Part shown: positions 1 to 64,000 of the stretch, one piece after another | Layout of the letters: every line of letters starts with the position of its first letter | Numbering within the stretch: the stretch's first letter is position 1 | Source: a virus | DNA length: 64,000 nucleotides | Reading direction: 5' to 3' (one strand) | IMG/VR virus record: IMGVR_UViG_3300027971_000047 | Location: 6,639-70,638 of that record | Made by a program: the position numbers and the translations under genes | The notes under the pieces: model-generated | Told to the model about the DNA's origin: nothing | Databases searched by the model: none | What the model saw: the letters and a program-made list of their open reading frames with translations, nothing else

Positions 1-1166
1 TGGAAGGCGTTGGTCCTTCACTACAAGATTTAGAAAATGCTCTGACCCCTGCGGAACAGGCTGATATGTCAGATTTAGAACTCATGGTTAATAACGATTC
101 AGGGTTATATGCCCAAGCAACTGATGGGATTCGAGAGCGGGTTGATGAGGCTTTGGGTGAAGTTAAATATAATTACGAGGACCCAATTACTAATACTAAA
201 GCAAATCAAGATTTGAAAGATAGATTATACGAAAAAATCCAAGATGAGATGATTCAAGAATTTATTGAATCGGATGACGGCACTCTTGCAGCATTGTGGC
301 AAGAACAAAATACTGAAGAATTTAACCCCGAAGAGTTGCATCCCTTCTTTGACGAGGTTTATGCCATGACTTACGATGTTAAAAATGCTCAGGGTGAGGT
401 TGCCACCACTCTTAGTTCATCAACAAATAACATTTATCTTGATGGTGAGAGGCTAGTTGTAACTGGTGAAATTACCGATGATGCTGGTAACTATGCTGGA
501 GAGTTCCAACGCGGCTTTTACAAAAGTCAGGACAAAGAAGGCAACGAAATTTGGGCTGTGGAGCATGACTTATTCAAAATGGAGGATGAGTACGCAGGTG
601 TTGGCTTTGGCTCAAAGTTTATAGCCCGACAAGAGGCTTGGTATACCGCCGTAGGAATAGGCAGAATTGATGTAGGCACCGCATGGGATGGCGCTCGCCA
701 TTGGGCTAAATCAGGGTTTGACTTTGACGAAAGAAATACGGGTCACAATGTAAACGAGTTGATAAAGGGAAGAGCATTTAATTCTAATGAATTTGCTGAG
801 GGTTCAGCAAACCGCATTGAATTTGATTCTTTAATTTCAAATATGGTTACTGGATACAACCCATCAACAAGAGAATTTGATACAACCAAAAAGATTACAT
901 CTGATGATTTTCCTATCCCAAATGATTTCTTGATGATTGGCTACAAAGATAGAGTCCAAACAGGCACTAATCGCATTACAGGAAAACCCGTTTATTCGTG
1001 GGCTGGGGCAAGATTGCTGAACAATCTGAACATGAAGTATCAAAAGGGCTTGAGCAAAGAGGGACGCTCAATCAATCAGGGTCCAATTGACCGCGATGGC
1101 GATGGATTGGTTTATGACGGCACGGCTCGCGAAAAGCCCGCTCCTACGGTAAACTCATCTCCATGA
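1..1166 (+). CDS. GNAT-like effector protein, 5'-truncated (allele of the C-terminal part of 57761..59629)
   Basis: Frame is open from the window start (EGVGPSLQDL matches DKVGPSIDEL of the other allele); YAGVGFGSKF and GARHWAKSGF resemble GNAT motifs; ends DRDGDGLVYDGTAREKP. Confidence 0.6.
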   Translation, partial: EGVGPSLQDLENALTPAEQADMSDLELMVNNDSGLYAQATDGIRERVDEALGEVKYNYEDPITNTKANQDLKDRLYEKIQDEMIQEFIESDDGTLAALWQEQNTEEFNPEELHPFFDEVYAMTYDVKNAQGEVATTLSSSTNNIYLDGERLVVTGEITDDAGNYAGEFQRGFYKSQDKEGNEIWAVEHDLFKMEDEYAGVGFGSKFIARQEAWYTAVGIGRIDVGTAWDGARHWAKSGFDFDERNTGHNVNELIKGRAFNSNEFAEGSANRIEFDSLISNMVTGYNPSTREFDTTKKITSDDFPIPNDFLMIGYKDRVQTGTNRITGKPVYSWAGARLLNNLNMKYQKGLSKEGRSINQGPIDRDGDGLVYDGTAREKPAPTVNSSP

Positions 1167-1309: not shown

Positions 1310-1340
1310 CAGTTGTAAATCTATCCGCTATCATTGCCAC

Positions 1341-3542
1341 ATGGCGGATATAGCCCCAAAGTTAATTTCTTTAAGCGCTGAGAAACTACTCGCGCTTCAT
1401 GAGCGTATCCACAAGTCTCAAGCCTCTCCAGCAACAATTGAAGTCCATCACACAATCCTCAATGAGTTGGCTCGTCGCAAGATGGAGGCACCAAAAGATG
1501 ATTGGGACGACTTCGAGATTCTTGTTGATTCAATTAACGATGTAGACCTGACATCCCTTGGCTCATCATTACCAGCCGATATGGTTGCAGAGGTTATTAA
1601 ATCTAGCGGTAGCAATGTTGGCAATGTGCAGACTTTCCTCACCTCCCAAGGTTATGAAATGCGAATTGAGCCGATTGAACTAGACCCTATTGAGAAGATG
1701 ATTCGCGAAGAAGATGGCGAGTTCACGGTTTACGATTCAACAGGACGACGCAGATTTGGAACTTATCCATCAAAGAAAAAGGCTGAAGAGCGCCTTGCAC
1801 AAATTGAAAGATTCTCAAAGGCAGATAACACTCCGCCCAAGGCAGTTCGCTCCGCGGCTCGTCGTGCGTTGGATTGGATTGGCGAAGGCAAGGCTGGTGG
1901 AGGGTTTACCTCAGTTGGTCGCGCCCGTGCATCGCAGTTGGCTTCAGGTGAATCTGTCTCATTAGAAACTCTCAAACGAATGAAATCTTTCTTCTCACGC
2001 CACGAAGTAGATAAAAACGCACTTGGATTTAGTCAGGGAGAAAAGGGTTATCCATCTCCAGGTCGAGTTTCTTGGGATGCTTGGGGCGGAGATGCAGGAT
2101 TTGCATGGGCTGAGTCCATGGTTGCTCGCTCCGAACGAGACGAGGAAGTTGCTAAACATAATCCTGGCAAACACGACCAAAAAACCCACGGCAGGTGGGC
2201 TGATGGCATTGCAGATGCGATTAACAATGGCGAACACCCAATGGTTGAAAAAGAAAATGTTTCTGCATTTCTACTTAAAGCATCAACCCGCACAGACCAC
2301 CCTGACTTAACTGAATTGAGCATTGAAGGAACATTGCTCTACGGAGATGAAGGTATGGGAATTGCCCGCAAGGATATGCCACAGATTCCTGGAAAAGAAC
2401 GCGCTCGCTTTTTAGAAGAGATTGAAAAGAGCGACGGCATTACAGTTGAAAAAGAAAAAGTAGACCCAACAACTTTGAAGCCAATCCAAAAAGAAATCTC
2501 TGCCGCTCGTTCGGGTGCTATCTATAAGAAATTTCAAGAAGATGGCGAAATTCCAAAGAATGAACGCATCCTGATTTCCAAAGATGGTTATGTAGTTGAT
2601 GGACACCACACATGGGGAGCCGCGGTTGCCTTTGCTTTTGATAATCCTGGAACTGAGTTGCCTGTCTATCGTCTTTCAGTAACAGCAAAAGAAGCATTAG
2701 ACATTTCATTAAAGTGGTCAAAAGATAATGGTTTTGAAGGTCAAGCAATTGATGCACCTGCCAAGAAATCACTCCTATGGGAGCCTCTTGAAAAACATGG
2801 CGAGCATGACCAACGCACACATGGTTCATGGGCAAACAATATGGTTGCAGACAAAGAACCTGAGCAGGGGCAATCAAAAGAGGCAATCGCACTTGCTCGC
2901 ACAGTTCGTGAGAGAGCAGTTGCCGCTGAACCTGCAATTACAAAATTAGTTCAAGCGGTTGCCGACCAGTCAGGTGCAAGACTTGAAGGCTTATCACAGC
3001 GAATCAAATCAACTGATTCTCTTTCAAGAAAAATTGACCAAGATGCAGAGAAGGAATTTCAGGGCAATAGAAATAAGGCAGCAGAAGAAATCTCAGATGC
3101 TAACCGCTACACAATTTCTGTAAATGATAATGATTACGCAGATACTTTGAAGTCCACAGTTTCAGCGTTTGAAGAAACTGGGTGGAAAGTTCGTGTTAAG
3201 AATTTTTGGCAATCGGGCGACCCCTATGATGGAGTCAATCTAAAGGCAGAGCGCGACGGCATTAGAGTTGAGGTTCAAGTACACACTCCAAAGTCATACC
3301 AAATTAAGGAAAAGGCTTTGCATGATGTTTATGAGGTTTATCGAAAGTCCAAAGATGACTCAGTTCGAGAGTCCACTTGGAACAAGATGGTGGGTATTGC
3401 CAAGCGAGTCCCACGCCCTTCTAACTATGCAACAGTCCTTGGGGTTGGGACACTCATATTGCAACAGTTCGAGACAGCACAACAGGCGGGCTTGATTAAA
3501 TCAACCCCAGTTGGTAAACTATCCCCTGAGAGGAGGGCTTAA
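1341..3542 (+). CDS. Head-module polyprotein: unknown domains + ParB-like domain + RelA/SpoT-like nucleotidyltransferase domain
   Basis: ILISKDGYVVDGHHTW (ParB/Srx-like); RIKSTDSLSRK, DANRY, YDGVN, EVQVHT (small alarmone synthetase motifs); two KH..HDQ..HG.W motifs. Confidence 0.75.
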   Translation: MADIAPKLISLSAEKLLALHERIHKSQASPATIEVHHTILNELARRKMEAPKDDWDDFEILVDSINDVDLTSLGSSLPADMVAEVIKSSGSNVGNVQTFLTSQGYEMRIEPIELDPIEKMIREEDGEFTVYDSTGRRRFGTYPSKKKAEERLAQIERFSKADNTPPKAVRSAARRALDWIGEGKAGGGFTSVGRARASQLASGESVSLETLKRMKSFFSRHEVDKNALGFSQGEKGYPSPGRVSWDAWGGDAGFAWAESMVARSERDEEVAKHNPGKHDQKTHGRWADGIADAINNGEHPMVEKENVSAFLLKASTRTDHPDLTELSIEGTLLYGDEGMGIARKDMPQIPGKERARFLEEIEKSDGITVEKEKVDPTTLKPIQKEISAARSGAIYKKFQEDGEIPKNERILISKDGYVVDGHHTWGAAVAFAFDNPGTELPVYRLSVTAKEALDISLKWSKDNGFEGQAIDAPAKKSLLWEPLEKHGEHDQRTHGSWANNMVADKEPEQGQSKEAIALARTVRERAVAAEPAITKLVQAVADQSGARLEGLSQRIKSTDSLSRKIDQDAEKEFQGNRNKAAEEISDANRYTISVNDNDYADTLKSTVSAFEETGWKVRVKNFWQSGDPYDGVNLKAERDGIRVEVQVHTPKSYQIKEKALHDVYEVYRKSKDDSVRESTWNKMVGIAKRVPRPSNYATVLGVGTLILQQFETAQQAGLIKSTPVGKLSPERRA

Positions 3543-3546
3543 TAAA

Positions 3547-4260
3547 TTGCGATACTTTGTAAACTTTTACCGTAATAACCCACATACTCTTTGGCACTTT
3601 GAGGTACAGCCAAACAAGATTCTTGAGGAGCGCTGGGATGCGCCTAATTGGACGCCATCTGATGTGATTGCCGAATACCTCGTTCTTGGCGAGGGCAATT
3701 TTGAAGAGATAACTCCTGAGTTGGCTGAAAAGACCTTCCCTGATGCTTTTGAAACAATGGCTAAATCAATCGGTTCCTACGAGGTCTCCAAGGCTGAAGG
3801 CGATAAGCGATACACCCTTGGAGCCATGTATATCCCTGACAGATTAGATGCTCATAATGAGTGGACAGATGCCGAAGAGTTGCAACGAGCAGTTTGGGAT
3901 TATGTCCGAAGCAATGACCGCCGTATTCGATTGCAACATAATCGTGAAACCATTGCGGGTGAATGGGTCGAAGTTATGTCATTCCCATACGAACTAACAG
4001 TTCCTATTACAACCCCAAGTGGAATTATGGTCAATCATACTTATCCTGCAAACACAGTATTTCTTGGAGTTATTTGGGAAGAGTGGGCATGGGAGAAGAT
4101 TCAAAACGGAGAAATCCTTGGTTATTCAATTGGTGGACGAGCAGAACGCTTATATGTAGATATGGAAGCAGTTGAAAAAGATGACGGTCCCACAGTCAAT
4201 TCTGTCCATGTTGATACAATTATGAATCCGAAGAAAAAGAAGCCAAAGGAAACCAAATGA
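3547..4260 (+). CDS. XkdF-like prohead protease with an N-terminal extra domain
   Basis: DAHNEW, LQHN, GYSIGG motifs; TTG start after GAGAGGAGG aligns with MRYF start of the allele at 61326. Confidence 0.75.
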   Translation: MRYFVNFYRNNPHTLWHFEVQPNKILEERWDAPNWTPSDVIAEYLVLGEGNFEEITPELAEKTFPDAFETMAKSIGSYEVSKAEGDKRYTLGAMYIPDRLDAHNEWTDAEELQRAVWDYVRSNDRRIRLQHNRETIAGEWVEVMSFPYELTVPITTPSGIMVNHTYPANTVFLGVIWEEWAWEKIQNGEILGYSIGGRAERLYVDMEAVEKDDGPTVNSVHVDTIMNPKKKKPKETK

Positions 4261-4661
4261 AAGACATAAAGATTCTCAAAGAACTCCGCAATGGTCCTAT
4301 GAAGAGCATGAAGGACGACGAGTACGCCGTTATTGAAGGACAAGTCAATGAAAAGGGAATCGCAGGTCTTAGAGGCTATGCAAAGTCAATGGTTGAAAAG
4401 GCTATGCGCGAGATGGCTTACGCAATGAAAAAGGCTTCAGGATTAGCAGTTGGAGACATGGTTTCTTGGCAAGCATCAGGGGGAACAGCCCGAGGCAAGA
4501 TTGAACACATTATGCGTGATGGTGTTCTTGGAATTCCAAAGTCATCATTTAGCATTAAGGCTGAAAAAGATGACCCAGCGGTTCTTATCCGTATTTACAG
4601 AGACGGGGAAGAAACAGAAACTCTTGTTGGACATAAGGCTTCCACACTAAAAAAAGCCTGA
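4257..4661 (+). CDS. Head-associated protein with HVA1/DUF2945-like Tudor domain
   Basis: VGDMVSW..SGG.ARGKI...DDPA...VGHK.STL pattern; allele at 62054. Confidence 0.55.
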   Translation: MKDIKILKELRNGPMKSMKDDEYAVIEGQVNEKGIAGLRGYAKSMVEKAMREMAYAMKKASGLAVGDMVSWQASGGTARGKIEHIMRDGVLGIPKSSFSIKAEKDDPAVLIRIYRDGEETETLVGHKASTLKKA

Positions 4662-4894
4662 GCCTAGCCAAGCATCTAGGCACCGTACACGACCAAAAAA
4701 CGCACGGTGGTAAATACAACACCGATGACTCTGAGGGTGAAGATAGTTCTGAGCCAAAAAACTTTAGGGGTAAGAAACCTAAGATTAGTTATGACGAAAA
4801 CGATACCGATGGTGAGTTCGACAGTAACGCCGATGACCCAAAGTGGATGGATGACATGGACATTTTAAGATTACCTGCTAGAAACAAGCGATGA
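4649..4894 (+). other. -1 frame extension of 4257..4661 reached through A-run slippery site
   Basis: CTA AAA AAA GCC TGA; -1 frame open, KHLGTVHDQKTHGG...DDPKWMD, stop overlaps next ATG. Confidence 0.65.
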
Positions 4895-5154: not shown

Positions 5155-5257
5155 CAAAAGGGTCAAATTACGCTTATGGTATTCTTCGTATGTTTATACT
5201 CGATTTAGTTTTTTAGCGCGTTGCTAAAGGGCTTTTTCTATTTCGTTAGGAGTCAAA

Positions 5258-6085: not shown

Positions 6086-6088
6086 ACC

Positions 6089-52099: not shown

Positions 52100-52301
52100 A
52101 GGTTCAGGAATTACAGATGAAAACCGAACAGCAAAAAAGATTTGTAACGGGTGCGTATTAAAAACAGAATGTCTGACCTATGCGCTACATTACAAAGTAA
52201 CGGGTATTTGGGGTGGAACATCACTAAATGAACGCGACAACATAAGAAAAAAACTAAACATAATCGCCAAACCAATAACTAACGAAAGGCACACAGCATG
52301 A
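52035..52301 (+). CDS. whiB: WhiB family transcriptional regulator
   Basis: C...TEFFFP, AKKICNGC....ECL.YAL, GIWGGTS..ER. Confidence 0.88.
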   Translation: MMPWKFQGASCLGVPTEFFFPEGSGITDENRTAKKICNGCVLKTECLTYALHYKVTGIWGGTSLNERDNIRKKLNIIAKPITNERHTA

Positions 52302-52775: not shown

Positions 52776-53075
52776 ATGGCTTGGACTGATTTCTTCACAA
52801 AGGAATTAGCAGGTTCAAAAGTTGTTGTTGATTCGAATGGTAAACCATTTGTATCTCAAGAAATTGCTCTAAAAGAGTATGTTGAGATTGAGTTAAACAT
52901 CCAACGGGATGCTTTGCCTTACAACATCTACTTCCGACGCTTTGATGCAATTGGTGGCGAATTAGAAAATCGTCTCTTTGCTCAAGTTGGCGACAGAGAT
53001 TTGGCTTTGAAATCTGCTCTAGGAATAACTAACAAAAGAATTAACTCTTTTGAACTTGTTTCAGACGGAGAATAA
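52776..53075 (+). CDS. Hypothetical protein
   Basis: ORF with TATAAT promoter and RBS. Confidence 0.6.
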   Translation: MAWTDFFTKELAGSKVVVDSNGKPFVSQEIALKEYVEIELNIQRDALPYNIYFRRFDAIGGELENRLFAQVGDRDLALKSALGITNKRINSFELVSDGE

Positions 53076-53109
53076 AAAGGCTAAATCCGCTTAACGGTAT
53101 AATCGACAG

Positions 53110-53265
53110 GTGTACGATAACCTTTCACCCAATCGTGAGGCTGTCGTGTCTGTTTTACGGGCTTTCGCAATTCAAACTCACGAAGTATTTTCGGAGTTGA
53201 TAAATGCGGGATTCAATGAGCAACAGGCAATCGCAATTGTCGTAGGATTAGCAACCAAAGAGTAG
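53110..53265 (+). CDS. Small hypothetical protein
   Basis: TATAAT 6 nt before GTG; HE.F..L..AGFNEQQA..I. Confidence 0.55.
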   Translation: MYDNLSPNREAVVSVLRAFAIQTHEVFSELINAGFNEQQAIAIVVGLATKE

Positions 53266-53273
53266 AGGGTTAA

Positions 53274-54704
53274 ATGGCTGAGAAAATAACGCCCGATTTA
53301 CAAGAGTTAGGTTCTACTGGTTTACGCCGTTCAGGTGGAACGGTCTTTGAAGAATTTTTAGTTAATCTGCGTGGACAACGCGGAGCAAGAATCTATCGAG
53401 AGATGGCGGACAACGACCCGACCATCGGCTCAATGTTGTATGCAATAGAAAAAGTTATTACTCGTCTTGAATGGCGTGTAGACCCTTTCTCAGATGATTC
53501 TCAAGACGGAGATATTTCTAAGCAAGATAAAGAAGTAGCAGTATTCGTAGAATCTTGTATACATGATATGAGCGAGTCTTGGGACTCTGCTTTATCTCAA
53601 ATACTTTCAATGCTTGTCTTTGGTTTTTCATATCATGAGATTGTTTACAAAATCCGTGAAGGCGATAGCAAAAACCCACAGCGTAAATCTAAATATAATG
53701 ATGGTCGTATTGGTTGGCGCAAAATGCCTATTCGCGCCCAAGAAACTTTATTCCGTTGGGAAATGGATGACGATGGCGGTATTCAAGCCATGGTTCAAGT
53801 AGACCCATCAGCGGGTGGTATCCATACAATTCCAATTGAGAAGGCTTTGTTATTCCGTACCCATACACAAAAGAATAACCCTGAAGGTCGTTCTATTCTT
53901 CGTAACGCTTATCGCTCTTGGTACTTCAAGCGTCGTATTGAAGAGATTGAAGCAATCGGTATTGAGCGTGACTTAGCAGGTCTACCAGTTGCTTATGTAC
54001 CACCTGAGTTCCTTTCATCATCAGCAACAGCCGAGCAAGCCTCAGTTCTTGCATCAATCCAAAGCATCGTTACTTCTATTAAGCGTAATGAGCAAGAGGG
54101 AATCATTATGCCCTCGATGTATGACGACCAAGGACACAAAGTATTTGATTTAGTTCTTTTATCTTCAGGCGGTTCTCGTCAGTTTGATACAGACAAAGTT
54201 ATCCAGCGCTATGACCAAAGAATTGCAATGTCAATCCTTTCTGACTTTATTCTCCTTGGCTCTGACCGAGTTGGTTCCTACGCCCTTGGAACTTCCAAGA
54301 TGGATTTGTGGTCGATGTCAGTTGATGCAATTGCTAAAAGTATTGCTGAAGTAATTAACCAACATGCTATTCCTCGTTTATTAAAACTAAATGGCATGGA
54401 TGTTGCTCGCGCTCCTTATCTAACTTATGGTGAAGTAAGCCATGTTGATTTGAATGAGATTGCTGGATTTGTTGGCAACTTGGTACAAACAGGTGCAATA
54501 GTTCCTGACCCTAAGTTGGAAGAGTATCTACGCGACCTCGCTGGATTACCACCTGCCGAACATGATGGACAGAATTTTGGTATGCCACCTATGCCTGAAG
54601 CGGCAGGGATGCCTCCCATGCCTGAAGAACCAGCAACATCAGGTGAAGAAGAATTACCACCTGCTCCAACTACGGAGGCTCCGCAACCCCCTGAAGTTGG
54701 TTAG
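53274..54704 (+). CDS. Portal protein (DUF935/Mu gp29-like)
   Basis: GFS.HEIV, NPEGRSILR.AY, IGIERD..G.P; precedes MuF. Confidence 0.85.
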   Translation: MAEKITPDLQELGSTGLRRSGGTVFEEFLVNLRGQRGARIYREMADNDPTIGSMLYAIEKVITRLEWRVDPFSDDSQDGDISKQDKEVAVFVESCIHDMSESWDSALSQILSMLVFGFSYHEIVYKIREGDSKNPQRKSKYNDGRIGWRKMPIRAQETLFRWEMDDDGGIQAMVQVDPSAGGIHTIPIEKALLFRTHTQKNNPEGRSILRNAYRSWYFKRRIEEIEAIGIERDLAGLPVAYVPPEFLSSSATAEQASVLASIQSIVTSIKRNEQEGIIMPSMYDDQGHKVFDLVLLSSGGSRQFDTDKVIQRYDQRIAMSILSDFILLGSDRVGSYALGTSKMDLWSMSVDAIAKSIAEVINQHAIPRLLKLNGMDVARAPYLTYGEVSHVDLNEIAGFVGNLVQTGAIVPDPKLEEYLRDLAGLPPAEHDGQNFGMPPMPEAAGMPPMPEEPATSGEEELPPAPTTEAPQPPEVG

Positions 54705-54706
54705 AG

Positions 54707-55723
54707 ATGGCACTACATTTTGTACATCCCTTTGAAAAGGCGCGTAACAAAAGAGTTCCACTAACACCTCAAGAACAAGAACTTGCTCGTACTTTGTATC
54801 AATCAATTCAGCGAGCCACAGATAAAATCTCGATGAGACAACTTGAGTCCCTGCTTCGTAACATGAACCCTGAAACCTTAGAGCGTTTATTATCAACCAT
54901 AACTATTGCTAATCAAAAGAGCATTAGAGATTCACTTCTAAATTCAATTGATATTGGTGGCAAGGATGCCATTAAACAAATTCAAAAGATTGCTCCTAAA
55001 TTAGCCCTCCCTGCCTTCTCACCTTCTAAAGTAAAGATAGAAAATAGACCAGCATTGGCTAACCTTGAGTTCACAAAAATTCCTATATGGGCGCAACCAA
55101 AACCACCTAAAGTTGAATTCACTATGTCCTTTAATAAAACAAACCCAAACTCTTTAGCCTTTGCTCAACGCCGTGCTGGAGAACTTGTAACCTCGATTGA
55201 TGCACTAACTCGTCTGTCAGTTCGCAAAGCAATCATCGATGCTTTCAATGAGGGCTTAGATTACAGAGCAACAGCCCGAAGAATTAAAAGTGTTGTAGGG
55301 CTACATCCAAGATTCGCTGATGCAGTAACTAACTTTGAGAAAAAAGAGTATGCCCGATTAGTTAAAAGCGGAATAAAAGAAGAAGCCGCTCGCGCTAAAG
55401 CAATCGAACGCTCTACCCGTTATTCAGATTCTCTTAAGAGCAAGAGAGCCACCATGATTGCTCGAACAGAGATTCAGATTGCTCAAAACGAAGGACGCCA
55501 AGAGGGATGGAACCAAGCGGCTAAAGAAGGTTATGTAGATGTTGAATCACAAAAGATGTGGATTATTGCTCAAGATGAACGCACCTGCGAAATATGTTTA
55601 GAATTAGATGGCGAGATAGTTCCTTGGGACGGAGCATTTTCTAGCGGAGATGAAACTCCAGGCAGAGTTCACCCTAATTGTCGTTGCACCATGGTAATCA
55701 TTCCACCTGAGAGACGCTCATGA
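54707..55723 (+). CDS. MuF-family minor head protein
   Basis: RATMIARTE, DERTC..C..LDG, HPNCRC. Confidence 0.88.
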   Translation: MALHFVHPFEKARNKRVPLTPQEQELARTLYQSIQRATDKISMRQLESLLRNMNPETLERLLSTITIANQKSIRDSLLNSIDIGGKDAIKQIQKIAPKLALPAFSPSKVKIENRPALANLEFTKIPIWAQPKPPKVEFTMSFNKTNPNSLAFAQRRAGELVTSIDALTRLSVRKAIIDAFNEGLDYRATARRIKSVVGLHPRFADAVTNFEKKEYARLVKSGIKEEAARAKAIERSTRYSDSLKSKRATMIARTEIQIAQNEGRQEGWNQAAKEGYVDVESQKMWIIAQDERTCEICLELDGEIVPWDGAFSSGDETPGRVHPNCRCTMVIIPPERRS

Positions 55724-56979
55724 GTATCACAATCGCATTTCCTCTTGGATATAAGCCAGTCCTTAAACATGGTGACCATGACCAAACTGACCACGGCGCT
55801 TGGGCAACCCAAGGTTCTGAAAAAGAAAAAGAAATTCACGAACGGATTACTGATATTAAAACAGGTGATTACGAGAGAGACAAATACGATGAGGAAGATA
55901 AAAACCTCTATCAAAAAATAGAAGCAAAATATAAAACGAAAGATGATAAAACTTATTTGTTGTGGCAAGAAAACATTAAAACACCTGAAGGAAATAACAT
56001 AATTGAAGTTAGAGCCTACGAGCCAAAAACATTAAGAAGCGGTAAAGAAGGTAGAAAACAAATCGGTTCATTGGCTACCGAAGGTAGAACAAGTTCAATA
56101 ATAGATGGTGTTTATGTTGATGAACAATATCAACGCCAAGGTATTGCTACCGCCATGTTAAATATGGCTAGAACCTATGCTCCTGATAATATGAAAATCA
56201 GCCATTCTTATTCTTTGTCAGACGATGCAAAAGGCTGGAGTAGTGTTGTAAAACACGGCGACCACGACCAATCAACGCACGGTAGTTGGGCTTCAGGTAA
56301 CTTTAATGAAATCTACGATGGCGAAAAAGCACAAAACACTTACTTTGATACTTACGGGATTAAAACTGATGGAAGTAAAGACCCTGTTGGAATCTCCCGT
56401 GAAGAAATAAGAAGTTTGAACACTTACACAGCAGATGGTTATGCAGAAATAAATGGATATTTACGAAGATTTAATAGAGAGCCTGATGAAAACGATTCGA
56501 TTGATGCCAAACAATACCGTCAAATGCAAGAATATAGAGTTGGCGATTTGGATAAACTCATAGAAGAAGCGCCTGAATTTTTTGGAGACAAAAATTTATA
56601 CCGAGTGTTTGATAAAAGTATTACAGATACTCTTGAAGTAGGAGATGTATTGACAGATAAAGGCTTTATGTCTACAACTAGAGTTGATATAACTAGGCAA
56701 GAAGGCTTAGAAGTATTGCAAAATTTACAAATGATTAGAACCACAGATGACACACCATCAATTCTTTTGCCAAGTGAATCTAAAAAAGGCAAAGGTCTAG
56801 CAGTTGATTATCTAAAAAATGCTGTTGTAGATTTGTTTGACAATGTTTCCGCCGCTAACAACGAAAGAGAAATTTTATTACCAAGAAATACATCTTTGAA
56901 ATTTATGGGATATAAAACTGTTAGTGTTGGGAGTGGCGACCCAATGAAAGTAGGAGTTTTTCAAAGGATGGACAAATGA
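55720..56979 (+). CDS. Polyprotein: GNAT acetyltransferase domain + VIP2-like ADP-ribosyltransferase domain
   Basis: VYVDEQYQRQGIATAML; YT..GY..IN..LR, LYR, GFMSTT, EREILLPR; two KHGDHDQ motifs. Confidence 0.8.
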   Translation: MSITIAFPLGYKPVLKHGDHDQTDHGAWATQGSEKEKEIHERITDIKTGDYERDKYDEEDKNLYQKIEAKYKTKDDKTYLLWQENIKTPEGNNIIEVRAYEPKTLRSGKEGRKQIGSLATEGRTSSIIDGVYVDEQYQRQGIATAMLNMARTYAPDNMKISHSYSLSDDAKGWSSVVKHGDHDQSTHGSWASGNFNEIYDGEKAQNTYFDTYGIKTDGSKDPVGISREEIRSLNTYTADGYAEINGYLRRFNREPDENDSIDAKQYRQMQEYRVGDLDKLIEEAPEFFGDKNLYRVFDKSITDTLEVGDVLTDKGFMSTTRVDITRQEGLEVLQNLQMIRTTDDTPSILLPSESKKGKGLAVDYLKNAVVDLFDNVSAANNEREILLPRNTSLKFMGYKTVSVGSGDPMKVGVFQRMDK

Positions 56980-57761
56980 GTAGATTCATAACCACGCTTG
57001 AGGATGTTGAGATAACCCGAGCCAAAGATGTAAAAAAACACGGAGACCACGACCAGTCAAGCCACGGCTCATGGGCTACGGGTGGCGCATCGGGAGTTTC
57101 CGCTTCGGAATTAGAAAGAGCGCATGAAGGATTTACATTCAGCGAAGAATCTTCTCAATCTGCTCTTTATTCCTATACTCATAACGGATATAAACTTATT
57201 AACGAGTATCAAAGAAGTGGAGATACTTATGAGTTAATTATGTCTGAGAAAGATGAATTCTTAGATAGAATCCCAGGTGTTTTAATTGATGCCGCTGAAA
57301 TTGATACAGATGATGCTAGGGGAGATGACGCAGACTTAGCGGTTAAAACAGTAGAAAAACTTATTGAAAAAACTACCGAGGCATTAGATTTAGCAATAGA
57401 TGAGGCGCCTCAAGTTTTGAAAGATAAACTTGTTTTTCGAGTAGTATCAGTTGATACCTTAAGAAATTTGAAAGAGGGAGATAGTTTTTCTGAAAAAGGA
57501 TTTGTGAGTACAACATCAGTCGATTTGAGAACAGATTCAAAATTACGAGAAAATCTTGGAAATATCGACAAGAAAACAGATGATGTTGTTGCCATCATAT
57601 ACAACGGGGAATTTGGCAAAGGTCTTGCCGTCAATTACAATCAAGAAGCGGCGGCTAATAAAAATGCTTTTGAGAATGAAATAATTTTACCAAGAAATAC
57701 AGAATTTAAGTTTGTGGGAAAAGATAAAGATGGAAACTATTTATTAGAAAGAAAAAACTAA
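56976..57761 (+). CDS. VIP2-like ADP-ribosyltransferase with KHGDHDQ leader
   Basis: YT..GY..IN, VFR, GFVSTT, ENEIILPRNT. Confidence 0.8.
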   Translation: MSRFITTLEDVEITRAKDVKKHGDHDQSSHGSWATGGASGVSASELERAHEGFTFSEESSQSALYSYTHNGYKLINEYQRSGDTYELIMSEKDEFLDRIPGVLIDAAEIDTDDARGDDADLAVKTVEKLIEKTTEALDLAIDEAPQVLKDKLVFRVVSVDTLRNLKEGDSFSEKGFVSTTSVDLRTDSKLRENLGNIDKKTDDVVAIIYNGEFGKGLAVNYNQEAAANKNAFENEIILPRNTEFKFVGKDKDGNYLLERKN

Positions 57762-59629
57762 TGATAGATAATAAATTTAGATTAAAATTAGAAAATATAG
57801 AATTGGTTATAGCCAAGCACGGAGACCACGACCAAAGTTCTCATGGCTCATGGGCGCAAGGGCTTCAGGTAGCCCCTGAGATAGTCCGCTCGACCCTTGA
57901 GAGCGTCAAAGCCAATGGAGGGCTAACCGTTGATATGAAGGACGGCTCCAGCCCTAAAGACGGCTTTATGGTGGCTAAGGGCAAGAAGTTCGCGGCGATA
58001 GTCAAGGCTGATGACTTTTTTAATGAGGCTAAAGGCGCTGAGATTCTTTCCTCCTACATGAAACAGCATAAATCTGAGTTCAATAATTCGAATAACTACC
58101 TAGGGTTATGGCACAATACGGATGATGGACAGGTCTACCTTGATGTATCAGAAAACATTAAGGACGAGGGAGAGGCTATCTCTCGGGGTCGTGAACGCGA
58201 CCAAATCTCAATATGGGATGTAGCGAACTTAAAAGAAATAGAAACAGGAGGAACAGGTGGCATCAAAAAAACTCGAAGCGGTACAACTGCCCGATATGTC
58301 GAACATGACGGACGAGCAGATAGACGCTTACGCCAAAGAGATTTGGGCAAAGTTAGCAAAACCCTCAAAGTAATTTACTTTGATTATGGTTTGAAACCCG
58401 TACTAAAACACGGTGAGCATGACCAGTCCGAACACGGTAACTGGGCTAGAGGCTATACGGCTGATGAAATATCTCGTATTGAAGCAATGGATAAAGTTGG
58501 TCCATCAATCGATGAATTAAATACTTTATTAAAAGGCAAAAAAGAATATACCGACGAAGATAAAACTCTTGTCGTAGAAAACGATTCTGACCTTTATGCG
58601 GATGCGACTTCAGGTATTGATGAATTAGTTGCATATCGTCTAAAAAACCTTCAAGAAGAATTTCCTAATCACGAATACACAGAACAAGAAAAAACAACTA
58701 TCTATGAAAATGTACAAAATGAAATGGTTGCTACCTATGTAGAGTCTAATAGTGAAACCCTAGACGAATACCTTCAAGCAAGCGATGGAGATGTTCCCGA
58801 CACCGAATCAGCGATGTACGCATTGCAGGATGTTTTTGGTGTGAGCCATACTGGAACAAGTATCAACGGAGAAGAAATAACTCTTAGTGCGAATGTTAAT
58901 GATGTTAGTGCCGACGGCTACAACATTTACATTAGAGGAGATGTTATCAACCAAGAAGGAAATTTGGCTGGAGAATTTGAACGCCGATTTTTTCAAAAAG
59001 ATGGAGTTTGGAATGTTGAACACTCAGTCTTGCGCTTAGACGAGGACCATATAGGTACAGGTTTTGGCAAAGCATTTATTGAACAATCAGAGGCTTGGTA
59101 TACCGCTAAAGGCTTTGGCTATATCGAAGTTGGAACTGCATGGGATGGCGCTCGCCATTGGGCAAGAGCAGGTTACGACTGGAAGCCTGACAGAGTGCAA
59201 GAAAACTTAGATAACATCTCTCAAAAAGTTGCCTCTATGGTTGATGACGATAGTGGTTGGTTTGCTGAAGGCTCCCCTGAAAGAGCCGAGTTTGATACTT
59301 TAATGTCAAGAGCAACAAATGATTATTCTCCTTATTTTGAGGATGAAAGTGGATATAAATATCCTGCTTTTGGCTCAGTCAAAGATTTGAAAGAAGATGA
59401 TTTTCCACTACCCGCTCATTTTGCAAACATAGGATATTCAAAAGAAAAAGCAGAGGCGACTGGAACTTGGGCTGGAAAAGAATTGATGTATGACTTAAGA
59501 ATGAAATATACAAAGTCATTGACTGCTGAAGGTCAAAAACTTCTTCGAGGACCTATTGACCTTGATGGAGATGGCTTAATTTATGACGGAACAGCCCGTG
59601 AAAAACCAGCACCTACAAAAAAGAACTAA
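57761..59629 (+). CDS. Polyprotein: unknown domain + GNAT-like domain
   Basis: YLGLW...G.VYLDVS...Q.SIWD domain; HIGTGFGKAF...GARHWARAGY; two KHG.HDQ motifs; DLDGDG tail. Confidence 0.7.
   Translation: MIDNKFRLKLENIELVIAKHGDHDQSSHGSWAQGLQVAPEIVRSTLESVKANGGLTVDMKDGSSPKDGFMVAKGKKFAAIVKADDFFNEAKGAEILSSYMKQHKSEFNNSNNYLGLWHNTDDGQVYLDVSENIKDEGEAISRGRERDQISIWDVANLKEIETGGTGGIKKTRSGTTARYVEHDGRADRRLRQRDLGKVSKTLKVIYFDYGLKPVLKHGEHDQSEHGNWARGYTADEISRIEAMDKVGPSIDELNTLLKGKKEYTDEDKTLVVENDSDLYADATSGIDELVAYRLKNLQEEFPNHEYTEQEKTTIYENVQNEMVATYVESNSETLDEYLQASDGDVPDTESAMYALQDVFGVSHTGTSINGEEITLSANVNDVSADGYNIYIRGDVINQEGNLAGEFERRFFQKDGVWNVEHSVLRLDEDHIGTGFGKAFIEQSEAWYTAKGFGYIEVGTAWDGARHWARAGYDWKPDRVQENLDNISQKVASMVDDDSGWFAEGSPERAEFDTLMSRATNDYSPYFEDESGYKYPAFGSVKDLKEDDFPLPAHFANIGYSKEKAEATGTWAGKELMYDLRMKYTKSLTAEGQKLLRGPIDLDGDGLIYDGTAREKPAPTKKN
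58257..58373 (+). CDS. Overprinted 38-aa ORF (+1 frame), candidate immunity peptide
   Basis: AGGAGG 5 nt before GTG; ...MSNMTDEQIDAYAKEIWAKL. Confidence 0.5.
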   Translation: MASKKLEAVQLPDMSNMTDEQIDAYAKEIWAKLAKPSK

Positions 59630-59648
59630 ACTAGGGTATAATTAGGTT

Positions 59649-59804
59649 ATGAGCAGACGAGAGACACAAAAGGCTATCCAAGAGGCTTATTCCAAATGGT
59701 CCGAAAAGGTTGAGTTCACCTCTGATACTGGTGCATCTAACGAGGACGAATTAAAGATTATGGATGAAATTTCAACCATACTTCAAGGAAATAAACCCGA
59801 GTAG
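59649..59804 (+). CDS. Small 51-aa protein, candidate immunity/partner
   Basis: TATAAT 6 nt before ATG; same position as 1163..1309. Confidence 0.55.
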   Translation: MSRRETQKAIQEAYSKWSEKVEFTSDTGASNEDELKIMDEISTILQGNKPE

Positions 59805-59829
59805 TAATACCATCCGCTACTCTTAGAAC

Positions 59830-61347
59830 ATGGCGGATATTGCACCCAAACTAATTCATCTAAGCGTTGAGGAACTACTCGCGCTCCACACGAATGTCCA
59901 TAAATCAGCGTCTCCAACCTCGGCTGAAATCGAGGTTCACCATACTGTTCTTAACGAGATGGCTAGACGCAAGATGGAACGCCCAAAGGATGACTGGGAT
60001 AGATACGAAATTCTTATTGATTCAATCGATGATGTAGACCTAACGACAATGGCTGGATTGCCAGCCGAGACAGTCCTAGATGTCATTAAAGCCACGGGCG
60101 ACACCGTGGGTAACATCAAAACTTTCTTTACAGTCAATGGCTATCAAATGCGAATTGAATCAGTTGAAAAAGCCGAGGATAGTTTTACGCCTCCTCAATC
60201 AGTAAGAGATGCGGCGCAACGAGCAATTGAATGGATTGATAAAGGTTTTGCTGGTGATGGATTTACTTCAGTCGGTAGAACTAGAGCGGGTCAATTAGCC
60301 CGTGGTGAAAGTGTTTCTATCCAAACCTTAAAGCGTATGAAATCTTTTCTTTCTCGACACAAAGTTGATGGACAAGCCCTTGGATTTAATCGTGGTGAAA
60401 AAGGATTCCCTAGCGCTGGTCGAGTGTCATGGGACGCTTGGGGCGGAGACGCTGGATTCGCTTGGGCAGAATCGATGGTGGATAGATATGAAAACGCAAT
60501 GGAAAAGCACGGAGACCATGACCAATCAAGTCATGGAAGTTGGTCTACTGGAACTGGTGGTGGAGAAGATAAGGGTTCGACTGGTCGCCCCGCTATGGCT
60601 TCAGATAAACCTGCATCCTCAGAGCGAAGCCCTGAAGCAGTTAAACAAGCCGAACGAATCAGAAGAGACGCTGAAGCAGTTGAGCCAGTAGTCACCTCTT
60701 TGATGGAGGGTATTGCTAAAAGTATCGATGCTGATTTTGCTGAATTAAATGGCAAAAATTCTCTTGTACAAAGATTAAAGTCCACAGATTCTCTTGCTCG
60801 CAAGATTGACCAAGATGCCGAGAAAGACCACGGCGGAGATAGAGAGAAAGCGGCTAACTCAATTTCTGATGCTGTTCGCTATACACTTAATGTTGATGAA
60901 AATAATTACACGGATGGTGTAGAAAAAACAGTTAAGGCTGTTGAGCAAACTGGTTGGAAAGTTGATTCAGTTAAAAACTTTTGGCAAGCAGGTGACCCTT
61001 ATGACGGCACTAACATTAAAATTAGTAAAGAGGGAGTTAAAGTTGAACTACAACTACACACACCGTCATCTCACAAAATTAAAGAAGTAGATTTACATGA
61101 TTCTTATGAGAAATACCGTGTATCCAAAGACAACACAGAGCGTAAATCTTTATGGGATGGAATGGTTGAAAAGGCTCGAGCAATCCCTAGACCAGCCAAT
61201 ATGGGCAAACTATTGACCATTGGAACGCTAGTGACACAGACTTTTGAGACCGCTCAACAAGCAGGTTTGGTAAAATCAACGGGGGTTGATATAATGTGGA
61301 GAATAACGAGAGGAGGTATAGCCGTATGCGGTATTTCGCAAAATTAG
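59830..61347 (+). CDS. Head-module polyprotein with RelA/SpoT-like domain (shorter allele of 1341..3542)
   Basis: RLKSTDSLARK, DAVRY, YDGTN, ELQLHT; lacks the ParB-like module. Confidence 0.78.
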   Translation: MADIAPKLIHLSVEELLALHTNVHKSASPTSAEIEVHHTVLNEMARRKMERPKDDWDRYEILIDSIDDVDLTTMAGLPAETVLDVIKATGDTVGNIKTFFTVNGYQMRIESVEKAEDSFTPPQSVRDAAQRAIEWIDKGFAGDGFTSVGRTRAGQLARGESVSIQTLKRMKSFLSRHKVDGQALGFNRGEKGFPSAGRVSWDAWGGDAGFAWAESMVDRYENAMEKHGDHDQSSHGSWSTGTGGGEDKGSTGRPAMASDKPASSERSPEAVKQAERIRRDAEAVEPVVTSLMEGIAKSIDADFAELNGKNSLVQRLKSTDSLARKIDQDAEKDHGGDREKAANSISDAVRYTLNVDENNYTDGVEKTVKAVEQTGWKVDSVKNFWQAGDPYDGTNIKISKEGVKVELQLHTPSSHKIKEVDLHDSYEKYRVSKDNTERKSLWDGMVEKARAIPRPANMGKLLTIGTLVTQTFETAQQAGLVKSTGVDIMWRITRGGIAVCGISQN

Positions 61348-62057
61348 GCGCAAACAACGAAGCGATAAACATTTATCGTTTTGAGGTAGGCGAGACGACC
61401 ATTACTGAGGACAGATGGGACATTCGAAGCAAGGCTTGGGTGGATAACCCTGATAGCGATGTTGTCGGCTATCTAACTCAAGGCGAGGGAGAATTCCAAG
61501 AAGTTACCGAGGATGTAGCCCGTCAAATTTTTCCTGATGTGTTTACCGAAGATGCTACAAAGTCTTTAGGTAAGTTTGATTTACAGAAAGCCGAAGGGGA
61601 GAAGCGTTACACACTTGGCGCAATGTATATCCCTGATATGGAAGATGCTCATGGAGAGTGGACAGATTCAGATGAATTACAAAAAGCAGTTTGGGATTAT
61701 GTAAAAAGTAATGACCGTCGTATTCGTTTACAACACAATAGAGATGTAGTTGCTGGAGAATGGGTAGAAGTTATGGCTTTCCCATATTCATTAACAGTTC
61801 CAATTAAAACACCTGAAGGTCAAGATTTAGAACACACATATCCACCTAATACAGTTTTCCTTGGTGTCATTTGGGAGCCTTGGGCATGGAACATGGTTAC
61901 CGAAGGAAAGATTCGTGGCTATTCAATTGGTGGTAAAGCAGAGCGTTTATTCGTTGATATAGACTTAGAAAAGAACGAGCCAACTGTGTCCGATGTACAT
62001 GTTGATACAATAATGTCACCGTCAAAGAAAAAACCAAAGAAAGTAGAAACCGTATGA
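61326..62057 (+). CDS. XkdF-like prohead protease with N-terminal extra domain (allele of 3547..4260)
   Basis: DAHGEW, LQHN, GYSIGG; GAGAGGAGG RBS. Confidence 0.75.
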   Translation: MRYFAKLGANNEAINIYRFEVGETTITEDRWDIRSKAWVDNPDSDVVGYLTQGEGEFQEVTEDVARQIFPDVFTEDATKSLGKFDLQKAEGEKRYTLGAMYIPDMEDAHGEWTDSDELQKAVWDYVKSNDRRIRLQHNRDVVAGEWVEVMAFPYSLTVPIKTPEGQDLEHTYPPNTVFLGVIWEPWAWNMVTEGKIRGYSIGGKAERLFVDIDLEKNEPTVSDVHVDTIMSPSKKKPKKVETV

Positions 62058-62488
62058 AAAAAGATTCACGGATGTTAGCGGAACTTCGCAAAGGACCTTT
62101 GGCTGGTATGGACGAGGACGAGTTCAAGATGATTGAAGAAGATGTAAAAAAGTTTGGTTTCAAAGGACTTAGTGGTTACGCAAAATCAACAGTTCAACGG
62201 GCAATACGCCTAATGGGTGGAGAGATTAACAAAGCAATAAAAAGCAAACTATTAGCATTTGAAAAAAATGTTTCAGTTGGAGATAGAGTTTCATGGAACG
62301 CATCAGGTGGAACAGCCGAAGGTAAAGTTTTAAGAATTGAACGCTCAGGAAAAATCAATGTTCCTGATTCATCATTTGAAATTGAAGGCTCAGAAGATGA
62401 CCCAGCCGCGTTAATTGTTTTATACCGTGATGGTAAACCAACTGATACTAAAGTTGGACATAAAGTTTCAACACTAAAAAAAAAGTAA
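62054..62488 (+). CDS. HVA1/DUF2945-like Tudor domain protein
   Basis: Allele of 4257..4661; ends in A AAA AAG TAA. Confidence 0.55.
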   Translation: MKKDSRMLAELRKGPLAGMDEDEFKMIEEDVKKFGFKGLSGYAKSTVQRAIRLMGGEINKAIKSKLLAFEKNVSVGDRVSWNASGGTAEGKVLRIERSGKINVPDSSFEIEGSEDDPAALIVLYRDGKPTDTKVGHKVSTLKKK

Positions 62489-62697
62489 TTCTTGAGAAGC
62501 ACGGCGACCATGACCAGTCGAGTCATGGTTCTTGGCGTAATGGAGATGACTCTGAGGGTGAAGATTCATCTGAACCAAAAAATCCAAAACAAAACTTTGT
62601 TCCTTACAAAGATGATTCTGAAGAAGAGTTTGAAGAATTAGATGCTGATGACCCTAGATGGATGGACACAATGGATTATCCAAGGAAAAAGAAGTAA
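62482..62697 (+). other. -1 frame extension with KHGDHDQSSHGSW motif
   Basis: A AAA AAG slippery heptamer; open -1 frame homologous to 4649..4894. Confidence 0.7.
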
Positions 62698-62963
62698 TGC
62701 CAAGCGTTATTGATGACACAATACAAGTTCTTAAATCTATGGGCATTTCTTCTTATCGAGTTTCAACCCCGCCTGGGTATGCAGGAATCCAAGTAAATCT
62801 ACCTAATGATTCTCAAGCATTTTTTGTTTGGACAAAAATAGACCAAACTGATTTTCATTTTAGGTTGGCTCGGTTTTGGGCTAATGAGAACCCTTTTTCA
62901 ATGTGGGTTTCACCTAATTTAATCGAAGCCCTAACCAAGACAAGGGTTTTAGCAAACCAATAA
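62697..62963 (+). CDS. Hypothetical protein (allele of 4891..5154)
   Basis: TAATG coupling; conserved sequence. Confidence 0.8.
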   Translation: MPSVIDDTIQVLKSMGISSYRVSTPPGYAGIQVNLPNDSQAFFVWTKIDQTDFHFRLARFWANENPFSMWVSPNLIEALTKTRVLANQ

Positions 62964-63068
62964 ATAGGCTCGAATTACACCTATGGTATTCTTTGTCTGT
63001 CAAGACCCGAGGTTAGTTTTATTAGCCCTATGCTAAAAAGACTCACCTCTAGTTTGTTAGGAGCATAA

Positions 63069-63878
63069 ATGTCAAAACCCCGTACCCGCAAAATGGTGAA
63101 TTTAGCCATCGAAGAAACGAGTGGAGTAGACCATCCAGCGCACTTACATGAAGGTTGGCTTGTAATGAAGTCAGCATCCGAATCTGAAGTTCAGAGGGTT
63201 CTCGACAAATCGCTGACCAAGGAGGACTCCAACATGGAGGATATGAAAACTACCGAGGCAACTGAAGTTAAGGTTGAAAAAACCGTTGAGGAACAATTAG
63301 CGGCGGCAGATGCCCGTATCGCTGAACTCGAGGCACAACTCGCCGAAAAAAACCAAAAGCCTGAAATAGAAGAATTAAAGATGGCGATGAACGAGGACTC
63401 AATGAAACCTAAAGTGGATGAGGAATATATGAAATCCGCTCCCGAATCAGTTGTTAAAATGATTACAGACTTGAAAAAGCAAGCAGAGGAGGCAACCGCT
63501 GAACTTCGTAAAGAGCGTGAAGCCCGTGCCGATGCTCAATCAGTTGAAAAAGCAAAGGGTTGGGCTAATCTCAATCTTAATGCTGAAAAAGTTGGACCAG
63601 CGCTTCGTCGTTTGTCTGAGACAGATTCAGAACTAGCAAAGAGTGTTGAAGAGATTCTTTCTTCAGTCAATGCTCAGGCTGAGTCAGCATCAATTTTTGC
63701 AGAAATCGGCAAATCTGCGGACTTCAAATCAGGTAATGCTTATGAGCGTATGACTACGCTTGCTAAGTCTGCCGTTGATGAGGGTGCATCAAAGTCAATG
63801 GCTCAAGCCATTGCCGATGTTGCGTTAAACAACCCTGACCTTTACAGCCAATATCTAACCGAGAAGGGTGCTAAGTAA
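63069..63878 (+). CDS. Capsid scaffolding protein (allele of 5258..6085)
   Basis: Near-identical N- and C-terminal parts, variable middle. Confidence 0.7.
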   Translation: MSKPRTRKMVNLAIEETSGVDHPAHLHEGWLVMKSASESEVQRVLDKSLTKEDSNMEDMKTTEATEVKVEKTVEEQLAAADARIAELEAQLAEKNQKPEIEELKMAMNEDSMKPKVDEEYMKSAPESVVKMITDLKKQAEEATAELRKEREARADAQSVEKAKGWANLNLNAEKVGPALRRLSETDSELAKSVEEILSSVNAQAESASIFAEIGKSADFKSGNAYERMTTLAKSAVDEGASKSMAQAIADVALNNPDLYSQYLTEKGAK

Positions 63879-63879
63879 A

Positions 63880-64000
63880 ATGGCATTTGAATTTAGTAAT
63901 TATTCAGTAAAAATTACAAGAGTTGCTGGCGCTGACTTATCAGCCCTTCAATACACTTTTGTAAAATTAAGTACAACTGACACAGTTGTTACTTGTTCAG
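63880..64000 (+). repeat. Exact repeat of 6089..6209 (start of decoration gene, truncated by window end)
   Basis: 121 nt identical by direct comparison. Confidence 0.95.

Follow-up and report, generated by a model that had tools for sequence, protein, structure and literature searches.

In the 64,000-nucleotide stretch analysed here (the window; bases 6639-70638 of the single 70,638-bp contig IMGVR_UViG_3300027971_000047, which comes from an uncultured phage, probably of freshwater actinobacteria), the genes lying between the MuF head protein gene and the scaffold gene carry a repeated histidine-rich peptide of 13 residues, KHGxHDQxxHGxW, called here the tag. We propose, with a probability that we put at about 0.5, that this MuF-to-scaffold stretch is a cargo (ejection-protein) module and that the tag acts on virion cargo as both cut site and handle, a modified form of the logic of polyvalent proteins and of the T4 capsid-targeting sequence. 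Location of the products in the virion, cutting after the lysine, function as a handle and delivery are what we infer from the gene sequences and their arrangement. The novelty lies in the tag, an undescribed and widespread junction element; virion cargo polyproteins are already a known kind. Motif strings of the tag did not occur in the literature searched, from which supplements were outside scope, and no published description of it was found there.

Window bases 6089-6209 and 63880-64000 are identical (121/121), so that the genome measures 57.8 kb and the contig runs through it about 1.2 times. The contig contains two diverged alleles of the head/cargo module, allele A (window 1-6088 and 6.6 kb upstream of the window) and allele B (about 52776-63879), whose shared head/cargo proteins are 40-72% identical and which differ by whole modules gained or lost at tags. 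They correspond either to an assembly through two co-occurring strains or to a real concatemer of variants.

Sixteen tag copies are present in the contig, ten in the window and six more upstream of it. The preliminary description of this DNA, made from the letters alone, had listed the ten, and a six-frame regex scan of the window found the tag at these positions only, all on the plus strand. The seven canonical copies of allele B are copy 1 (55765..55803, KHGDHDQTDHGAW), copy 2 (56251..56289, between a GNAT and an ADP-ribosyltransferase (ART) domain), copy 3 (57036..57074, in cargo gene 2), copy 4 (57815..57853, in cargo gene 3), copy 5 (58406..58444, behind a leader of the I.F..GLKPVLK type), copy 6 (60505..60543, in cargo gene 4) and copy 7 (62497-62535); copies 4 and 5 are also covered by an AF2 model. 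Allele A adds one canonical copy (2793-2831) and two variants (2154-2198 and 4670-4711) within the window. None of 200 shuffles of the contig contained any HDQ..HG match, against the 16 observed. Confinement of the tag to the region between MuF and the scaffold gene, claimed from this phage alone, extends to its relatives: all 16 contig copies lie between the MuF end and the scaffold gene, as do 50/50 copies in the 10 relatives holding both genes, and 232/232 copies are downstream of MuF in the 58 relatives holding MuF. Nearly all enzyme modules are preceded by a tag, the one exception being the N-domain that opens cargo gene 4.

The downstream limit of the tagged region is a scaffold-like coiled-coil protein (63069..63878, plus strand; phrog_13547, E 2.6e-87). 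The sequence V-D-H-P-A-H-L-H-E-G-W is identical in the scaffold N-termini of both alleles (63069-63180 and 5258-5370), with D-H, H and W spaced as in the tag. It was considered as a cryptic tag and dropped, since it shares only D-H, H and W; its V-D-H-P-A start is probably the usual V-D-x-P-A one of XkdF-type scaffolds.

In the conserved unit at the junctions, which is about 30 residues long, hydrophobic-x-Lys, with an invariant lysine, is followed by H-G-[DE]-H-D-Q-x-x-H-G-x-W-A-x-G. Codon usage varies among the 16 copies, with His CAT/CAC at 10/6 and 8/8, Gly GGA/GGT/GGC at 3/7/6, Lys AAA/AAG at 6/6, Gln CAA/CAG at 12/4 and Ser drawn from both codon families, and the mean pairwise nucleotide identity is 65% over the 42-nt core. 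Because the codons vary while the peptide is kept, selection acts on the peptide, which bears out the earlier remark that the peptide and not the DNA is conserved. This result weighs on the idea that the tag is a passive inter-domain linker, without recognition function, kept as a recombination joint for module swaps. As this idea predicts, modules are gained and lost at tags, both between the two alleles and from one relative to another, but joints act through DNA identity and the copies are only 65% identical in DNA. Furthermore, the N-terminus of single-module genes needs no linker, and nine near-invariant residues over 173 units from relatives (see below) are unexpected for a spacer. We consider this explanation very improbable.

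Structural models were consistent with a linear motif. The tags had been placed at module boundaries, and in the AF2 models of the 622-aa and 733-aa cargo proteins (mean pLDDT 75.8 and 75.9, respectively) 4/4 modelled copies fall in linker segments of pLDDT<50 flanked by confident domains. The tag is thus, as modelled, a linear motif in a predicted disordered linker. Pfam searches with six tag-centred fragments at E up to 10 returned no meaningful family for it.

To follow the tag beyond this phage, relatives were sampled in two ways. The first viral sample was collected with a degenerate DNA pattern fixing K, H, H, D, Q, H and G; it comprised at least 120 contig stretches, and 117 of the 120 loci listed held a total of 377 HDQ..HG matches, up to 11 per locus. 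The second was chosen by portal similarity alone and consisted of the best 80 of 514 matches (81-98% identity). The tag unit was found in 46/46 of those portal-selected loci whose sequence extends 2.5 kb or more past the portal gene, and each of the 14 that extend 8 kb or more past it held 4-9 units. The tag is universal in this lineage. Over the 173 unique portal-selected units, conservation was K.99, H.99, G.90, H.97, D.99, Q 1.0, H 1.0, G.99 and W.93, and the residue two before the lysine was V (.78), L (.09) or M (.05), that is V/L/M in 92%. Variable positions after the lysine were identical at 0.51 within a locus and 0.33 between loci, as compared with 0.20 and 0.15 before the lysine; such homogeneity is compatible with co-adaptation to one partner and equally with recent duplication, and is not used here as evidence.

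A profile search run exhaustively over 1.84 billion cluster representatives retrieved 805 proteins at E up to 1e-3, 27 of them at E up to 1e-30. The top match is a 7,059-residue protein (P0121) in which 20 matched tag stretches separate repeated paralogous modules; most of its copies read G-D-Q for H-D-Q, hence the first histidine of HDQ is not essential. Other variants carry R-R-K in place of N-W-A. In 5.8 billion proteins, a word-seeded search scored 8,000 candidates, 687 of which matched, with Pfam labels that included ART, DRAT, GNAT, SprT-like, DUF5872 and XkdF protease. In cells, a scan of 185,579 species gave at least 120 matches; only 2 of the 120 listed had the full extended motif, both in metagenome-assembled genomes (MAGs) of Actinomycetota, and the remaining matches look like chance, about 70 chance matches being expected. 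The motif search and domain tabulation suggested in the preliminary description have been run, with 805 proteins, 134 module clusters and chance level in cells bar the two MAG contigs as the outcome. A tblastn search of the 37-aa unit in 50,697 GenBank phage records (E up to 10, low-complexity filter on, with source-near records possibly outside the set) gave no match, and that of the 622-aa protein gave one weak phage record. An actinobacterial host is indicated by the two Actinomycetota MAGs, the only convincing cellular matches, together with a WhiB-family transcription factor gene in the window (52005-52301; PF02467, E 1e-14) that adjoins the SSB gene. An ORF overlapping the WhiB gene (open reading frame; 51767-52099) shows a Cys pattern and has no Pfam match.

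These variants bear on the proposal that the tag is a metal-binding (Zn/Ni/Cu) hinge which keeps toxic enzymes inactive or condensed until ejection, or which bridges cargo, with or without cleavage. Such a hinge would account for three to four His, an Asp and a Gln, nearly invariant, within 10 residues, and for a segment predicted to be disordered without a partner. It leaves the equally conserved Trp-Ala-x-Gly and the upstream Lys unexplained, and it is difficult to reconcile with the replacement of the first His of HDQ by Gly throughout the 7,059-residue protein and with the replacement of N-W-A by R-R-K elsewhere. We hold it to be improbable. An ATCUN-type copper site and a Lys-Gln isopeptide role for the tag were also considered and dropped.

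The position of the tag within its proteins is constrained as well. Cutting the ORFs at the tags yielded 504 modules (median 231 aa) in 134 clusters. Of 198 tags that come first in their ORF, 99 have a leader of at most 40 aa, with a median of 16 and an interquartile range of 15-20, and only 2/198 have a leader shorter than 8 aa. Another 121 tags lie inside their ORF, and 32 more lack an upstream start codon. To judge from the sequences, the constrained leader fits a removable propeptide that would supply the residues upstream of a cut. The tag could instead be a docking or loading handle only, never cut, with the scaffold, the portal, MuF, the protease or the inside of the capsid as its partner, the polyproteins being packaged and ejected whole like the N4 virion RNA polymerase, which according to passages of a survey of polyvalent proteins is packaged unprocessed (PMC5512222). 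A handle agrees with the tag being the sole element common to all cargo modules, with its length and conservation, greater than those of known protease sites, and with its presence at the N-terminus of genes that encode one module only and so have nothing to separate. However, a pure handle could sit at the extreme N-terminus, where tags are almost never found, and one handle per polypeptide would be enough, yet up to 20 are carried. Neither the invariant Lys nor the hydrophobic residue two before it is explained by a handle, and the protease itself is tag-joined to other modules (see below). A handle that is never cut therefore appears rather unlikely to us.

The candidate for the cutting enzyme is encoded in the same gene block. 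The gene that follows the module of cargo gene 4 resembling small-alarmone synthetases (SAS) and Apk encodes an XkdF-type head maturation protease (Peptidase_S78_2; 61296..62057, plus strand; Pfam E 2.1e-11, 44.3 bits against a cut-off of 24), and its allele A counterpart (3511..4260, plus strand) is 59% identical. In a 32-sequence alignment that includes the allele A protease, His147 and Ser210 are invariant, and by analogy they would be the catalytic residues. The first ~95 residues of the protease ORF (61296-61580) form a conserved extra domain without a Pfam match, directly after the SAS/Apk-like module. A hydrophobic-x-Lys sequence is conserved at the C-terminal junction of the protease in 33 distinct sequences; the window protease has it at the matching distance after the G-Y-S-I-G-G segment, with no tag after it. 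The tail of the protease (..V-H-V-D-T-I-M.., with a Lys-rich end; 61950-62057 and 4160-4260) resembles the N-terminus of the capsid protein (..S-V-H-V-D-A-I-L.., 6492-6560), and this capsid-like tail may be the route by which the protease enters the procapsid.

Protease and cargo are also physically joined in relatives. An XkdF-like ORF was found in 52/120 of the motif-selected loci listed, many of the others being truncated, and in 6 ORFs among these 52 loci the protease and a tag share one reading frame. In two matched proteins (P0041 and P0061) the tag stands less than about 10 residues after the protease domain and is followed by Tudor-like modules. In-frame fusions of protease and cargo are found at L032:6744-8645, L084:7418-9181, L092:1173-3674 and L101:1311-2795; the one in L092 is an 834-residue frame with the N-domain, a ParB-like domain, the protease, a Tudor domain and further modules. 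Altogether, the modules fused to the protease comprise the N-domain, ParB-like, Tudor, SAS-like and P-loop domains, mostly joined via the tag. A protease embedded in the chain joined to it is a hallmark of self-processing viral polyproteins. Folding the 32-sequence protease alignment with a 45-residue tag unit gave a score of 0.00 without controls, a result that counts neither way.

Immediately downstream of the protease, the tag is reached in another manner. A Tudor-like (Hva1_TUDOR) head-module protein (62054..62488, plus strand; Pfam E 1.1e-07) ends in a run of nine A (62476-62484), and a -1 frame extension without a start codon (62476..62697, plus strand) carries tag copy 7 and then an acidic peptide with 18 D/E versus 9 K/R in 53 residues. 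The arrangement recurs in allele A (4257..4894, plus strand), where the Tudor-like gene runs to 4661 and is followed, after an A7 run and in the -1 frame, by the degenerate tag at 4670-4711 and an acidic peptide. The acidic peptide had been listed as a tagged module in its own right; its acidity stands, and there is no own start codon at 62497 or 4670, the peptide being reached by a -1 shift from the Tudor-domain gene. We compared 40 distinct Tudor-tag junctions, two of them those of the window alleles and the other 38 taken from relatives. In 25, an A7-A9 run leads into a tag in the -1 frame; in 7, the Tudor gene and the tag are fused in frame; for the remaining 8, no tag was detected by the script. 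Since the -1 arrangement is kept in 25/40 junctions and 7 are in-frame fusions, the shifted product, Tudor domain, tag and acidic peptide, is very likely real on the strength of the sequences. The shift would occur either by ribosomal or by transcriptional slippage. T4 also has acidic internal peptides.

Taken together, these results suggest the following sequence of events. The MuF-to-scaffold stretch would be a set of translationally coupled genes for polyvalent-type proteins of an actinobacterial tailed phage. Inside the procapsid, the XkdF-type serine head protease encoded by the phage itself would cut at hydrophobic-x-Lys, thereby separating the modules and removing the ~16-residue leader of single-module genes. 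The His-rich part, now at the new N-terminus, would be the handle that brings cargo to, or holds it in, the protease or the procapsid interior. Once freed, the enzymes (two ARTs, GNATs, a ParB/Srx-like domain and a probable (p)ppApp/(p)ppGpp-type pyrophosphokinase) would be injected along with the DNA and the acidic internal peptide, and would modify host targets. A two-part signal of this kind makes sense of several observations: an invariant Lys with a hydrophobic residue two before it, leaders that are required at N-termini, reiteration in polyproteins, protease fusions, and a long conserved part that comes after the cut. Hydrophobic-x-Lys recurs where a cut is expected, at the tag junctions and at the protease tail, and the His-rich peptide would be a separate element.

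Several points weigh against this two-part signal. It does not explain what the handle binds. At least 13 near-invariant residues lie C-terminal of the presumed cut, far beyond the usual protease site, so that cutting alone does not explain the motif. The capsid protein, scaffold, portal and MuF of this phage have no tag, so maturation of this head does not in general proceed at tags. As a tripeptide, hydrophobic-x-Lys is common. If the one in the protease tail is truly cut, it functions with no His-rich part beside it, and the two parts may then be independent. The precedent for a protease of this family cutting after lysine comes from HK97 and not from the present data, and no publication giving an XkdF cleavage site turned up in the literature search. 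Finally, the conservation figures of the pattern-selected sample are partly circular; the portal-selected sample is fairer, yet its units were found by profile.

A bolder form of the cut-and-handle proposal, which we hold only tentatively and as doubtful, is that hydrophobic-x-Lys and the His-rich peptide together form a self-contained, transferable address label. The protease or the scaffold would bring into the procapsid any protein with this label, the cut would follow the lysine, the new N-terminus would retain the product, perhaps through metal or DNA contacts, and ejection would come last. This label would wire the protease, the Tudor protein, the acidic peptide and more than 100 effector families in an abundant lineage of freshwater actinophages.

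The genome has a Mu-type portal, a lambda gpE-type capsid protein, a cement protein, MuF and the XkdF-type head protease, and the head genes are ordered portal, MuF, cargo genes. The MuF-family head morphogenesis protein (54707..55723, plus strand, 338 aa; Phage_Mu_F E 4.9e-18; phrog_3517 E 2.3e-59) has Phage_Mu_F as its only Pfam domain, without an effector domain or toxin fusion. The claim that MuF carries no toxin is thus correct for this phage as judged by Pfam and does not extend to the system: MuF is fused directly to the first tag in 5 loci of relatives (cluster 16), and in a divergent lineage (L005), which also has an XkdF protease, a 1,879-aa MuF protein contains five tags.

The MuF stop overlaps the start of cargo gene 1 (ATGA). 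Cargo gene 1 (55720..56979, plus strand, 419 aa) encodes a 15-aa leader, a tag, a GNAT domain, a second tag and an ART, with above-cut-off Pfam matches to Acetyltransf_1 at residues 125-159 and to ADPrib_exo_Tox at 225-401 (43.5 bits against a cut-off of 23.4). Cargo gene 2 (56976..57761, plus strand, 261 aa) encodes a 20-aa leader, a tag and a second ART (ADPrib_exo_Tox, PF03496, 31.3 bits against the same cut-off of 23.4). The catalytic motif of ADP-ribosyltransferase exoenzymes is R / S-T-S / E-x-E, and by eye the translation of gene 1 contains Y-R, S-T-T and E-R-E, that of gene 2 F-R, S-T-T and E-N-E.

Cargo gene 3 (57761..59629, plus strand, 622 aa) consists of an 18-aa leader, a tag, an alpha/beta domain (residues 37-167), a tag and a GNAT-fold C-module (231-593). 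In its AF2 model the domains are confident, and pLDDT is <50 at residues 1-36 and 168-230. The alpha/beta domain had no Pfam match and no PDB profile match under E 0.25, the latter being true also of an extra domain of allele A. For the C-module, Foldseek top matches were almost all GNAT acetyltransferases, the best with an E of only 2.5e-3, PDB profile matches to GNATs were weak (E 0.02-0.6, motif A region), and Pfam gave no match; its GNAT-like nature is supported at the fold level only, from the model. The corresponding C-terminal module of allele A (3..1166, plus strand) is 40% identical; it belongs to a cargo protein of 882 aa whose start lies upstream of the window.

Cargo gene 4 (59830..61347, plus strand, 505 aa; phrog_2859, E 2.8e-206) encodes the untagged N-domain, a tag and the SAS/Apk-like domain. 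The profile of this domain matched PDB 8vx3 (E 4.8e-24) and Tas1 (E 0.01), and Foldseek gave E 2.2e-8 with TM 0.76; in the 733-aa protein of allele A, VIA gave Z 17.6 to 8vx3 over 194 aligned residues (root-mean-square deviation 3.6). Homologues of the C-module of cargo gene 4 form the C-termini of MuF proteins of Streptococcus (pneumococcal), Pasteurella and Mannheimia prophages, with 35-37% identity to those of Streptococcus in the rows listed, and passages of a study of Apk2 report that the domain of this MuF prophage group makes (p)ppApp (PMC12226406). By homology, the domain is a probable (p)ppApp/(p)ppGpp-type pyrophosphokinase.

The 733-aa protein itself (1341..3542, plus strand) comprises the N-domain, the variant tag at 2154-2198, a ParB/Srx-like domain, the tag at 2793-2831 and the SAS/Apk-like domain, with pLDDT<50 at residues 271-283 and 468-500. 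The ParB/Srx-like module (residues 350-459), present in allele A only, gave VIA Z scores of 6.3, 6.1 and 5.9 to 5x0b, 6ky4 (sulfiredoxin) and 5ujd; 5x0b and 5ujd have the ParB/Srx fold. Protein Atlas returned ParBc_2 (0.86) and ParB_N (0.85), both leads only, and the profile of the module had no Pfam or PDB sequence match. Support for a ParB-like identity is modest. Among the module identities first assigned, those of the GNAT, the two ARTs and the RelA/SpoT-like domain were hence upheld, that of the GNAT-like C-module at fold level only and that of the ParB-like domain modestly. As a whole, the modules are a shuffled enzyme set such as MuF toxins and polyvalent proteins also draw on, and the overall interpretation given in the preliminary description is partly supported. 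Two conserved genes without a tag, of 51 aa (59649-59804) and 101 aa (62658-62963), also lie inside the cargo/head block.

ART genes of 24 freshwater phages have been interpreted as 'Trojan horse' toxins against eukaryotic grazers, as passages of Kavagutti et al. 2019 state (PMC6802176), in which case the tag would be a secretion or translocation signal unrelated to the capsid. This interpretation is opposed by the location of the ARTs between MuF and the head protease, by the sharing of the tag among the ARTs, the protease, the Tudor protein and the internal acidic peptide, and by the presence alongside of enzyme types with bacterial targets such as the Apk/SAS-like domain. In addition, the first cargo protein has its best PHROG match in the T4 Alt-like family, phrog_802. 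The setting of the ARTs in a head module speaks for delivery into the bacterial host and against the grazer-toxin explanation, which we regard as the least probable of all those weighed here.

The system was compared with known ones. Polyvalent proteins combine two to 15 unrelated domains per polypeptide in phages and conjugative elements, and passages of their description propose that they are packaged and delivered with the DNA and discuss head processing (Iyer, Burroughs, Anand, de Souza, Aravind 2017, PMC5512222). As in these proteins (PMC5512222, same passages), unrelated enzyme domains (ART, ParB-like and others) stand here beside the MuF and portal genes; cargo genes 1, 3 and 4 and the 733-aa allele encode 2-3 distinct domains each, and relatives have up to 20 tagged modules. 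Unlike in polyvalent proteins, the chain is split over four coupled genes with MuF alone, one conserved His-rich junction peptide accompanies each module, and the likely processor is the XkdF-type head protease, whereas polyvalent proteins have an in-chain zincin metallopeptidase. The word 'linker' occurs 0 times in the main text of that description and no such motif is described in its passages, supplementary alignments being outside scope (PMC5512222).

The likeness to T4 concerns the shared peptide. T4 internal proteins share only the capsid-targeting sequence, and IPI-III and Alt are diverse anti-host proteins, including a packaged ART, with a short N-terminal prohead-core peptide in common, according to passages of PMC3012670; here, the leader and tag are shared over 134 module clusters, with a median leader of 16 aa. 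Unlike in T4, the conserved peptide lies C-terminal of the presumed cut and would stay on the mature protein, and the signal is reiterated inside polyproteins. The T4 protease gp21 (S77) recognizes L/I-x-E and cuts after Glu. By contrast, the protease here is Peptidase_S78_2 (XkdF) and a conserved Lys precedes the tag. MuF polymorphic toxins are reportedly the subject of Jamet et al. 2017. Unlike these toxins, including Apk2 as presented in passages of PMC12226406, MuF is not fused here and there are several effectors versus one. The passages of PMC12226406 make no mention of a junction tag, and immunity genes of the iapK/aph1 type turned up nowhere here, no search aimed at them having been made. 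In SPN3US, as passages of PMC10052503 describe, gp245 removes 20-24-residue or long N-terminal propeptides of head cargo and its own C-terminal propeptide; there, the cleavage sites are measured, the motif is short, the protease is of T4-like lineage and no long conserved peptide follows the cut.

If the tag is a loading-and-cutting label, injected effectors of uncultured phages could be recognized from sequence by a simple rule; of the 134 module clusters, most have no known function. For the protease, it would be the first substrate rule of the poorly studied XkdF family. In engineering, it would offer a short portable peptide to load foreign proteins into HK97/lambda-type capsids, as the T4 capsid-targeting sequence does. 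For the ecology of freshwater actinophages, delivery into the bacterial host is a testable alternative to the Trojan horse reading of their ARTs.

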